Shown here: piece after piece, positions 2,458 through 17,097 of the stretch
Layout: every line of letters begins with the position of its first letter
Position numbering within the stretch: the stretch's first letter is position 1
Source: Octopus vulgaris
Taxonomy: Eukaryota
DNA length: 64,000 nt
Direction: 5' to 3'
Assembly: GCA_951406725.2 (NCBI GenBank)
Contig: OX597825.1
Coordinates: 17,732,001 to 17,796,000, forward strand
Translations under genes and position numbers: made by a program
The notes under the pieces: generated by a model
The model's database searches: none
Seen by the model: only the letters and a program-made list of their open reading frames with translations
Told to the model about the DNA's origin: nothing

Positions 2458-2790
2458 GCCCTGATCCAGTACCAGACAGTTGCTCTCATGGCTACTGATC
2501 TTAACTGATTGGAAGTGTTATCGTGTACATTGTTTTGTCTTGGTATAAAAGATGGGCTACAGCAAATATTCTGTTCAATACCACAGATTTGCTTGTCAGT
2601 TTGACCTTAACCAGTTGACCATGTCCCTTAGTGACTGACGATATGTGCATCTCTGATCACGTGCAGAAATAGTGGGGGAGCATCATAGCCATGTGTTGAG
2701 GGGGATTCTTTGGGGTTCGGATAATTCACATTTGGAAACGTGGGTGGTTCGTTCAACATTCTTAAACGATCCTTATTCAGGGAGCTTTTG
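2367..2790 (-). mobile_element. 3' end of a non-LTR retroelement with (ATT)n tail
   Basis: Non-coding block 2457-2790 abutting an (AAT)n tract at 2367-2456, the layout of a LINE 3' UTR plus trinucleotide tail on the minus strand. Confidence 0.5.
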
Positions 2791-2792
2791 AG

Positions 2793-2961
2793 CTTACGTA
2801 CCACATGGTTCCGGGTTCAGTCCCTCTGCGTGGCACCTTGGGCAAGTGTCTTCTACTATAGCCTTGGGCCGACCAAAGCCTTGTGAGTGGATTTGGTCGA
2901 CAGAAACCGAAAGAAGCCCATCGTATATATATACATATATATATATATGAATATATACATA

Positions 2962-3011
<50 letters not shown>

Positions 3012-3240
3012 CGTGTGTGTGTGTGTGTGTATGTTTTTGTGTGTGTGTTTGCCCTTCCCTCAACATCGCTTGTACTGTGTTTACGTTCCCGTAACTTAGG
3101 TATTCGGCAAAAGAGACCTATAGAATAAGTACTAGGATTACAAAGAAGAAGCCCAGTGATCGATTTGCTCTACTAAAAAAAGGCGGTGCTCCAGCATGGC
3201 CACAGTCAAAATGACTGAGACAAGTGAAATAGTAAAAGAG
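2793..3240 (+). mobile_element. SINE family B, 5' truncated, expanded internal microsatellite
   Basis: Matches 991-1390; internal (TA)n(TG)n at ~2924-3050. Confidence 0.9.
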
Positions 3241-3296: not shown

Positions 3297-3430
3297 TGTT
3301 ATCTGTATAAACGTGTATTTCCTATCCATAGGTTTATTAGTATCACATTAGTATAATTGTATATGTTATCTGTATAAACGTGTATTTTCTATCTATATAT
3401 TTATTGGTATCACATTAGTATAATTGTATA
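3297..3430 (+). repeat. Tandem duplication, 2 x 67 bp
   Basis: TGTTATCTGTATAAACGTGTATT...GTATCACATTAGTATAATTGTATA at 3297 and 3364. Confidence 0.9.
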
Positions 3431-4009
3431 TTTCTATAACATTCAACGACATGACCAGTGTCATATTATTAACACAACGCCAAGATAACCTCTATTTGAT
3501 TTATAATTATATAAGTTAAAGTCTAACTCGAATTTGCGTATTATACATTCAAGTACAATTGTGGATTTCTATTATATAATATTGTTCAGCGTTGCATTGT
3601 CAATTCGCCTAATTGTCAGTTATAATACAAACGATTTCATTAAATTCAGAAAATATTACTCCAGTAGTGACATATCAATAATAAATATTGTTCTACTGTA
3701 ATTATGTTATTATAAATTTATAATAATGCAGTGCAGTGGTAGCTATTTTATAACATATTTCAACCTTTTTGTGTTCAACATGATAGCTTAAGTTGTTATA
3801 ATATTTATTATTTATCATTCGACCCCACGTTCTTTATAATAGATCTCAGTTCTTTACTAATGATTAGAATTGCAAATTCTCTTAGAATATTAATACAATC
3901 GCATATACACATGTACACATGCATATATACATATATGTATATGTATATATGCATACTTACATACATATATATACATATACATACACACACACACACACAT
4001 GTATATATG

Positions 4010-4093
<84 letters not shown>

Positions 4094-4281
4094 GTGTAAT
4101 TTATCATTGTTTACAAATAACACGGAAAAAAATATAAATAGTTACCAGGGTAGCAAAAATTCACATAAGTTCGAAAGATGTAACAACCTACTTATAAAGG
4201 TAGAAATTCCAGGCTTTCGTGAAAATGTTTTTGTATATCATAGATAAATAAATAAATGAAGTTAAAATTCAGATGTTTATA

Positions 4282-4368
4282 CTTCCGACATATGTTTCGA
4301 AGAAAATATTGGTATTATTCCAGAAGGAATAAAACGATGTGAACAATACAATCTTCTCATCAGGGAAA
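4282..4368 (-). ncRNA. Type I hammerhead ribozyme motif, canonical core
   Basis: Minus strand TTTCC-CTGATGA-GAAGA...TCTTC-GAAA-CATATG-TC-GGAAG. Intact core, G-C closed stem II, palindromic stem III, GUC site (cut between 4287 and 4286). Confidence 0.85.
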
Positions 4369-5002
4369 AAGAGAGAGACAAAACGCAACAATAAAACATT
4401 TTAATAGGGACTGTGTGGGAAAAAAAACCGATTTAGTTACATTCTGTGAGCGAACATTGGTGGGCCTATGATCTTTTGAAAACCACTCTTTTGTACACTA
4501 CATGCACCTGATACAAAATCCCCTCTTGTGTATACCTACACGAACCAGATACACATACACACTCAGCAGATTACTCACATACACATACGCACACTTACTC
4601 ATATACAGCGCGGATAATACCCATTTGTACTAAATACATGCAGCCACAGGTCAGTACACACACGCATATGTACACCAACAAACCAAATATCACGTTCCAA
4701 ACAGAGTCGACACTATTATGCTGCCCTAGCAATGGGTCATAGGAATTCAGATTGGAACGCAGAACTGGAATTGCTATCATATTAATAACAGTATGTAACC
4801 TGCGTTGACCAATAACAGTCCCATATTCAGAAACTATCGTGGATTCGCCTCATTCGGCTTCTACGTTTCTGACGAGATAGGTTAGTTTGACGAGCTTTCC
4901 ATAGTTGAAGAGTTGAATGGAATCGAATCAAACTGTTAATCAATAAAACTCCCATCAAATACCTTTCGTACCCCGTTCTTTCGTTTGTCCACTAACCTAT
5001 AC

Positions 5003-16100: not shown

Positions 16101-17097
16101 TACTTATATACACATATATACGTACACATGCATATATATATGCACAAACATTTATGCATAACTATGTACATACATTCGTATACATGCATACGAAAACAAA
16201 CATATGCACGTATATACAAGCACTCACGCATCAAAACAGCTAACTACCTTAATATTCAAGATCGAATTGATCTCTCTCAACCTATAATACCAAGGATTAA
16301 CCTAAATGACCATAAATCATATTTCAAAGAATATCTTACCGTAAGACTGATTTGCCCTTCCAAACCTGATATGGGGAGATCGAGTAAAAAATTTTAAATA
16401 GCATTATTCCTTCTTTAAAAATCTATTATTTCTCTTAATCTCTGGACAGATTCTTAAAATTTGATAGACTGGTTTGTAAGCTTAACGAAATAAAAACAAA
16501 TAGAACATGAAATTTACAAAATGATATTAATAGCTATTATTTGTCAATTAATCCTACCCTTAATAAAGCTCCCTTTTTTGCTATGGAAAATACAAATACT
16601 GACAAAATGAAATTGATTTAATTCTAGATGACAGGAAAACTACTATCAAATTTGGAAATATATGACGGACTAGCAAAATTAGGCCTGAGAATTTTTGATA
16701 TCATTAACGGATCTAGTGACTCTGCTCTGAGGTCAGAGATCTTGCAGGATTGTATTAATTATACAATATTAAAGAACATACACTTATGTTCACGGAAGTC
16801 TATATATACACGATTGTAATTTTTCTTATATAAACATATTAATGTAGAAATAAAACGTAAAAAAAAAAGAAGAAACGTTACATTCTTTCAAATTACGGTC
16901 TTTCGATTACTGTGGAATGGAATCTTAATACAGCTGATTATTTAGATGTCGCGTTTGATTGAAACTCTGGTTTGTGTAAAACATTTTACAAAATAAATCA
17001 GAATCTTCAATATATACACAAAATAAAAGACAATGATCCATGTGCAATAAAGTATTCAACTGTAAAATGCATTTCACGCCTTCTAAAACTTCAGCAA

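Follow-up and report, generated by a model that had tools for sequence, protein, structure and literature searches.

A type I hammerhead motif in an old pseudo-LTR relic of a Hydra-like Penelope-like element in Octopus vulgaris, and its intact young relatives

Introduction

The closest described relatives of the element studied here are the Penelope-like elements (PLEs) of the Hydra clade, including Hydra-1_Obim (Craig et al. 2021, PMC8557442), which resemble it in unit length (~2.9 kb), in a single ORF with RW and DKT motifs and YRDD, and in a C-terminal endonuclease that lacks CCHH and carries CxxC and CxH. Also shared are (TA)n targets, a type I hammerhead in the 3' region and inverted 5'-truncated copies. 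The same paper suggests that the CxCX5C linker directs (TA)n targeting, and it presents the role of the PLE hammerhead and the origin of inverted, tailed insertions as open questions (PMC8557442).

The PLE hammerheads described by Cervera and de la Pena (2014, PMC4209133) are like ours of type I, carried on pseudo-LTRs (pLTRs), and have a palindromic stem III and a G10.1-C11.1 pair. As in our family, they are mostly solitary or in close opposite-strand pairs, and low activity is expected of them. Hammerheads of this type are reported to show no activity as monomers and only slow cleavage as dimers (PMC4209133), dimer dependence and slowness are likewise reported in PMC6765202, and activity can need the element protein (PMC11167929). 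For the Poseidon element PAc of Anolis (Frangieh et al. 2024, PMC11167929), both target strands are reported to be cut, and the PLE tail is explained by two initiation sites.

Here we compare with these systems a hammerhead motif from a 64,000-nt (64-kb) stretch of Octopus vulgaris DNA, referred to below as the window. We put at about 0.85 the probability that this motif is the pLTR hammerhead of a Hydra-like PLE, lying in an old, 315-nt, 5'-truncated copy that was likely inserted by TPRT into (TA)n, with cleavage predicted only for the dimer and a solitary locus that likely does little or nothing.

Results

A descriptor scan and direct reading located a type I hammerhead motif at 4282..4368 on the minus strand, the single type I descriptor match on both strands of the 64 kb. 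All of its parts lie on the minus strand. The 5' arm of stem I (4364..4368) forms 5 bp and, in the sister subfamily, carries a double change from C-G to U-A; it is followed by the core C3-A9, CUGAUGA, at 4357..4363, found by the descriptor and by direct reading. Stem II takes up 58 nt (4299..4356) and comprises a 5-bp base with G10.1-C11.1, an internal loop, a 5-6-bp helix and a capped hairpin. Direct reading then gives G12-A13-A14 (GAA) at 4296..4298, the self-complementary stem III ACAUAUGU at 4288..4295, which can form 2 bp and a tetraloop in a monomer and 8 bp in a dimer, and the 3' arm of stem I at 4282..4286. Established hammerhead numbering puts the cut after C17, here at 4287, and the reading of the core thus predicts cleavage at 4287/4286 (4286..4287). 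Just beyond, the stem I extension is damaged (4266..4275): compared to family copies it has lost 10 nt near 4266/4267 and carries substituted letters at 4275 and 4272. An earlier note made from the letters alone had proposed a canonical minus-strand hammerhead with its cut at 4287/4286, and every part that it named was found where it had placed it.

In 40 order-2 Markov simulations, the chance expectation was 0.025 matches per window at the stringency reached by the motif. A looser descriptor yields 0.58 chance matches per window (again 40 order-2 Markov simulations), and this rate, together with weak Rfam matches to C/D-box RNAs (E 0.3-9), is what could be said for a chance match or a C/D-box snoRNA. 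Such an origin is scarcely credible, as hundreds of dispersed copies have a conserved core, the snoRNA scores miss the gathering thresholds by a wide margin, and at 4270-4267 the D-box-like CUGA differs from the family sequence. SnoRNA and miRNA matches of Rfam at the motif were rejected as chance level only. Rfam returned no hammerhead at the motif, either at the gathering score or at E up to 10, of which the 58-nt stem II is a likely cause. The 101-nt strand carrying the motif folds only modestly better than its shuffles (z -1.83). The TATTG/CAATA helix of stem II is private to the window copy, with CATTG/CAATG as the family form, and in this copy both outer pairs of one stem II helix are altered together. 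The window motif is confirmed as a real hammerhead motif.

The motif lies within a 5'-truncated 3' end of an element (4090..4404, minus strand), namely a pLTR of the long-end class from the old subfamily of a Hydra-like Penelope-like retrotransposon. Homology to family copies extends over 315 nt, from 4404 to ~4090, with 84-87% identity to other old copies when gaps are counted and 88% for substitutions only (88.2% against eight old copies), and 69% identity to the intact young unit. Comparison of copy ends puts the termination position of short-end family copies at 4234..4248 on the minus strand. A (TA)n target tract (4002..4087) adjoins the 3' end of the element, and (TA)n is also entered by 57 of 59 young outer ends. 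The earlier note had the hammerhead cassette abutting (TA)n, which is right for the element, whose 3' end near 4090 adjoins the tract, but not for the hammerhead, which is ~195 nt away; likewise its type I assignment stands, while the membership of the motif in a retrotransposon pLTR had been overlooked.

Upstream of 4404 neither an inverted partner nor a target-site duplication was found, the 64-kb window has no second hammerhead copy or tandem unit, and no long coding frame or gene was recognised near the motif. Since the window copy is 5'-truncated and solitary, has the identity of the old subfamily and lacks a partner or ORF nearby, we read it as an old solitary 3' end, an ordinary relic of an old, broken element. 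One could instead see in it a non-autonomous retrozyme unit, that is, a tandem hammerhead repeat that forms small circles. Animal retrozymes are defined by type I hammerheads with a short stem III (PMC7229834), and retrozymes have been proposed to derive from pLTRs (bioRxiv 10.64898/2026.07.22.740005), but the solitary state of the motif in the window and the fact that family copies run upstream into an endonuclease ORF make this highly improbable.

The window also contains a heavily decayed reverse transcriptase (RT) remnant of a second, distinct Hydra-like family (16230-17090, plus strand; 30-50% to the ORF described below and its homologues). A low-copy dispersed repeat at 4677-4990, outside the element, occurs at 14 other places with 66-84% identity, an abundant SINE-like repeat at 2790-3240 also flanks many family loci, and a 67-nt tandem duplication at 3297-3431 consists of two copies that are 92% alike.

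Folding predictions bear on what the window copy could do. As a monomer its stem III has 2 bp with a pairing probability of 0.0, and its hammerhead fold lies above the free minimum by +6.0 kcal/mol for the monomer and +5.4 kcal/mol for the dimer. The double hammerhead is predicted to lie 11.8 kcal/mol below two monomer folds, which bears out the earlier proposal of a type I hammerhead with a palindromic stem III of the dimer type. Built structures were evaluated for the 54 of 124 copies that are core-intact and distinct and have flanks, and the copies were ranked by how near the dimer fold comes to the free minimum; the window copy came 28th of the 54 overall and 5th of the 22 old copies. Among young copies the double hammerhead was itself the unconstrained two-strand minimum for 17 of 32, among old ones for 1 of 22. 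Stem I of the window copy has only 5 bp, compared to 11-17 bp in the 21 other old copies and 11-19 across all others ranked, because of the two substitutions and the 10-nt deletion just downstream. The earlier note had called this motif the best candidate for activity, a claim that we drop for a solitary copy that is 12% diverged, no longer has its stem I extension and stands 28th among the 54. In these models cleavage of the window copy as a two-copy dimer is plausible; the copy is predicted to need a partner for cutting and would likely cut weakly, and for cleavage assays the younger intact copies found elsewhere are the better choice.

It is very unlikely that the window locus is an active, host-relevant ribozyme that cleaves a transcript passing through it and works as a monomer with the aid of internal-loop contacts between stem I and stem II. 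The canonical core, G10.1-C11.1 and GUC would suit such a role, as would the paired change in stem II and the fifth place among old copies, and newt type I monomers are reported to cleave given looped stem I extensions (PMC6155905). In undamaged family copies, internal loops lie 5 bp from the core in both stem I and stem II. However, the stem I extension needed for these contacts is lost in the window copy, stem III is not predicted to pair in the monomer, neutral decay leaves an intact core in about a third of copies, and no gene or long coding frame was recognised nearby.

The window copy belongs to a large family in the microsatellite-rich, 2.8-Gb host genome. A genome search with 4240-4420 gave 1,498 first-look candidates, of which 40 were scored. 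A 21-mer spanning the cut has at least 323 exact genome copies, compared to 0 for the reversed control; a 21-mer of the youngest hammerhead form has 240 exact copies. Young copies are 98.6% identical to each other and old copies 89.8%, with 76.7% identity between old and young pLTRs. L061 and L062 are intact young pLTR-ORF-pLTR units with inverted 5'-truncated arms, and the young unit is 2,874 nt long. Old-family copies extend upstream into a remnant of a GIY-YIG-type C-terminal endonuclease, and L066 is a decayed full-length copy of the old subfamily whose protein is 57-75% identical to the young ORF. As in PLEs, pLTRs arise from partial tandems, 5'-truncated copies are inverted, and a tail is found at one end; intact relatives and the copy series place the hammerhead within the pLTR. 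In a search limited to the text of published papers, none was found that describes this family, a PLE tail as long as 150 nt or, for any animal PLE, a stem II of 58 nt. Separately, four near-identical old copies (L023, L031-L034; G000:C12, 34.16-34.36 Mb) lie ~60-70 kb apart, a spacing pointing to a large tandem segmental duplication.

The young ORF encodes 775 aa with RIRW, SDKT, YRDD and a C-terminal CxxC and CxH, and without CCHH. It thus has the Hydra-clade traits of RW(K), DKT, no CCHH, and CxxC and CxH around E and N residues, in a unit <3 kb that inserts into (TA)n. The combination of RT and C-terminal GIY-YIG endonuclease in a single ORF was seen in L061, L062 and L066 and is absent from the window copy. 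Among 51 homologues, 27-40% identical to the young ORF, most have the same motifs. Atlas neighbours of the ORF score 0.96-0.98, with GIY-YIG, RVT_1 and HTH_animal on 13-100% of the members of the clusters beside it, and a by-eye comparison with the proteins in Figure S7 of Craig et al. agreed motif for motif. Pfam found no domain in the endonuclease fragment or the whole ORF, and in 40 aligned proteins it found RVT_1 in 1, with no match in the query; a PDB sequence search with the ORF matched no solved structure. The putative RT and GIY-YIG labels rest on the motifs, the 51 homologues, the Atlas neighbours and the reading of Figure S7. The CxCX5C linker, present in 43 of the 51 homologues, is absent from the young ORF and from the old remnants L066-L068, and because it is missing we call the element Hydra-like rather than a plain member of the Hydra clade.

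Hammerheads could be parsed from 124 of 128 collected copies (4 unparsed). From old to youngest, the core and cleavage triplet form the series CUGAUGA/GUC, CUGAGGA/GUC, CCGAAGA/GUC and CCGAAGA/GUA, the last with G10.1-U11.1. Both subfamilies have C3, G5, A6, G8, A9, G12-A14, A15.1 and U16.1 as their majority letters, and these ten essential core positions persist across the series, as does the self-complementary stem III. In 24 chosen copies, 88.6% of the pairs in stem I, lower stem II and stem III are standard, compared to 32-55% in slid controls. Covariation includes the C-G to U-A change in stem I and several wobble changes in stem II, which amount to few independent events since most of it comes from one split between two subfamilies. 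The core is intact in 26 of 59 old copies, where neutral decay would leave 35%, and the intact core of the window copy is unremarkable.

We surveyed the 5' ends of young copies chosen only by the post-cut motif, taking the first 100 of 547. In this sample 97 copies run uncut across the cut site and 65 run past -118, indicating that cleavage is not required for most insertions. Starts at the cut (-1 to +6) numbered 3, with 2.8 expected, so no excess of 5' ends was found there. In contrast to their expected 1.3, 12 copies in 10 loci start at the 3' foot of stem II (-11 to -16; p ~3e-5 allowing for 20 windows). This pile-up fits stalling of the reverse transcriptase at a folded stem II in uncut RNA; fold-back joints at the TTT(C/G)GAAA palindrome found there could also produce it, with no RNA structure involved. 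Of the 30 copies that include a pLTR-ORF junction, 17 continue beyond the upstream cut site; 5 start at most 41 nt after the cut and 0 at most 41 nt before it (p 0.03, for a window picked afterwards), a weak hint that some templates are cut. A junction in L108, 2-6 nt past the cut, was considered as a cleavage end and rejected, as it shows microhomology and is within chance.

The core series and the uncut young copies raise the possibility that the hammerhead is a vestige, kept structurally only as a long hairpin after the youngest expanding subfamily drifted to U4C, G10.1-U11.1 and GUA because cleavage had become irrelevant. The stepwise order of the changes, the 240 exact copies of the youngest form and the 97 of 100 copies that cross the cut agree with this, and so do published reports that catalytic mutants had no effect on insertion in vitro (PMC11167929) and that U4C lowers in vitro activity (PMC3088659). 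On balance we consider a pure vestige unlikely, though a serious contender. Its three changes are at tolerated positions, while stem I pairing and the palindrome are kept along with all ten essential positions, the double-hammerhead fold is predicted to be best in the youngest copies, and U4C is also reported to be sufficient in vivo for a viroid (PMC3088659).

Young copies have two fixed 3' ends 150 nt apart, lying ~52 or ~202 nt beyond the cut. The 59 young outer ends comprise 38 long ones, 21 short ones and 0 elsewhere, a ratio that is biased because 30 of the loci were fetched by a long-end query; of 73 old ends, 33 are short and 27 long. All 12 inverted insertions seen combine one long and one short end. 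A further set of 12 had been predicted beforehand, and the 10 that were scorable all had one end of each kind, although one of these shares the L062 junction and is perhaps not independent. This difference between the ends is the known PLE tail, which in our family reaches 150 nt. The long arm of both L062 and L073 breaks off at the point where the short arm begins, an arrangement like that left by twin priming of L1, and our literature search found no paper that applies twin priming to PLEs. Where arms overlap at other loci, a tandem template or a pair of RNAs would be required.

At L110, L112, L116, L118, L129 and L132 we observed tandem read-through that reaches the start of the ORF, and in the four scorable cases it is on the short-ending arm, which implies that either primer can make cDNA longer than one unit. 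At L073 (1357-1683; G000:C1, near 299 kb) we noted a 330-nt two-armed mini insertion with one genome match, whose long arm ends at the short priming site; in two runs not recorded as RNA, contigs with the L073 junction were far deeper than the ORF. Contigs from four runs not recorded as RNA gave no piles of starts or ends on L061. The insertions at L062 and L106/L102/L150, which are two and lie on different contigs (C5 and C15), have common inversion breakpoints, 6452/4344 in L061 numbering, which suggests that the whole inverted structure was duplicated or re-transposed.

Discussion

In the mechanism that we propose, the element protein would cut both strands of a (TA)n tract and prime two cDNAs inside the RNA, one ~52 nt and the other ~202 nt beyond the hammerhead cut, so that insertions would be head-to-head and end short on one side and long on the other. 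Most template RNA would be uncut and have stem II folded, and ancestrally the ribozyme may have processed tandem or read-through transcripts, slowly and under dimer gating or with help from protein. The account of the family as a whole, which we advance tentatively and at somewhat below even odds, is that of a recently active, intact Hydra-like element that would find (TA)n without the linker zinc finger and prime two cDNAs 150 nt apart, on both strands of one cut. Its hammerhead would be dimer-gated, with a 58-nt stem II that stalls RT in the uncut template, so that the ribozyme arm may serve structurally, besides or instead of cutting.

Having lost the linker and still inserting into (TA)n, the element provides a counter-example to the published idea of linker-guided targeting. 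Both open PLE questions, on hammerhead role and on inverted, tailed insertions, become directly testable in this family: its ORF is intact, its near-identical young copies number in the hundreds, its core variants form a dated series, and the two priming sites are easily told apart because the tail is 150 nt long. As a test system the family has moderate value, owing to its missing linker, the length of its tail and stem II, and the intact state of its young copies.

The element departs from the systems introduced above in several ways. It is without the CxCX5C linker of the Hydra clade (PMC8557442), its stem II and loop comprise 58 nt compared to 10-24 nt in the 25 Hydra hammerheads given in File S2 of that paper, and its tail is 150 nt long compared to the 30-40 bp given there for PLEs. 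Its hammerhead sequence is unlike that of Hydra-1_Obim, which makes it a different family. Compared to the hammerheads of PMC4209133, stem II has ~20 bp with internal loops rather than 7-8 bp, undamaged copies have a long stem I extension, and the youngest subfamily carries U4C. Two rows for the Selaginella element PLE-X1 in File S2 of PMC8557442 provide a plant precedent for the long stem II (~50 nt), but that element is from a plant, endonuclease-less and rRNA-targeting. Like PAc of Anolis (PMC11167929), the element has AT-rich targets and probably two internal RT start sites downstream of the hammerhead and an uncut RNA template; these sites are 150 nt apart rather than the 30-40 of PAc, the hammerhead lies ~255 nt before the start codon where that of PAc overlaps it, and the two elements are from different clades (PMC11167929).
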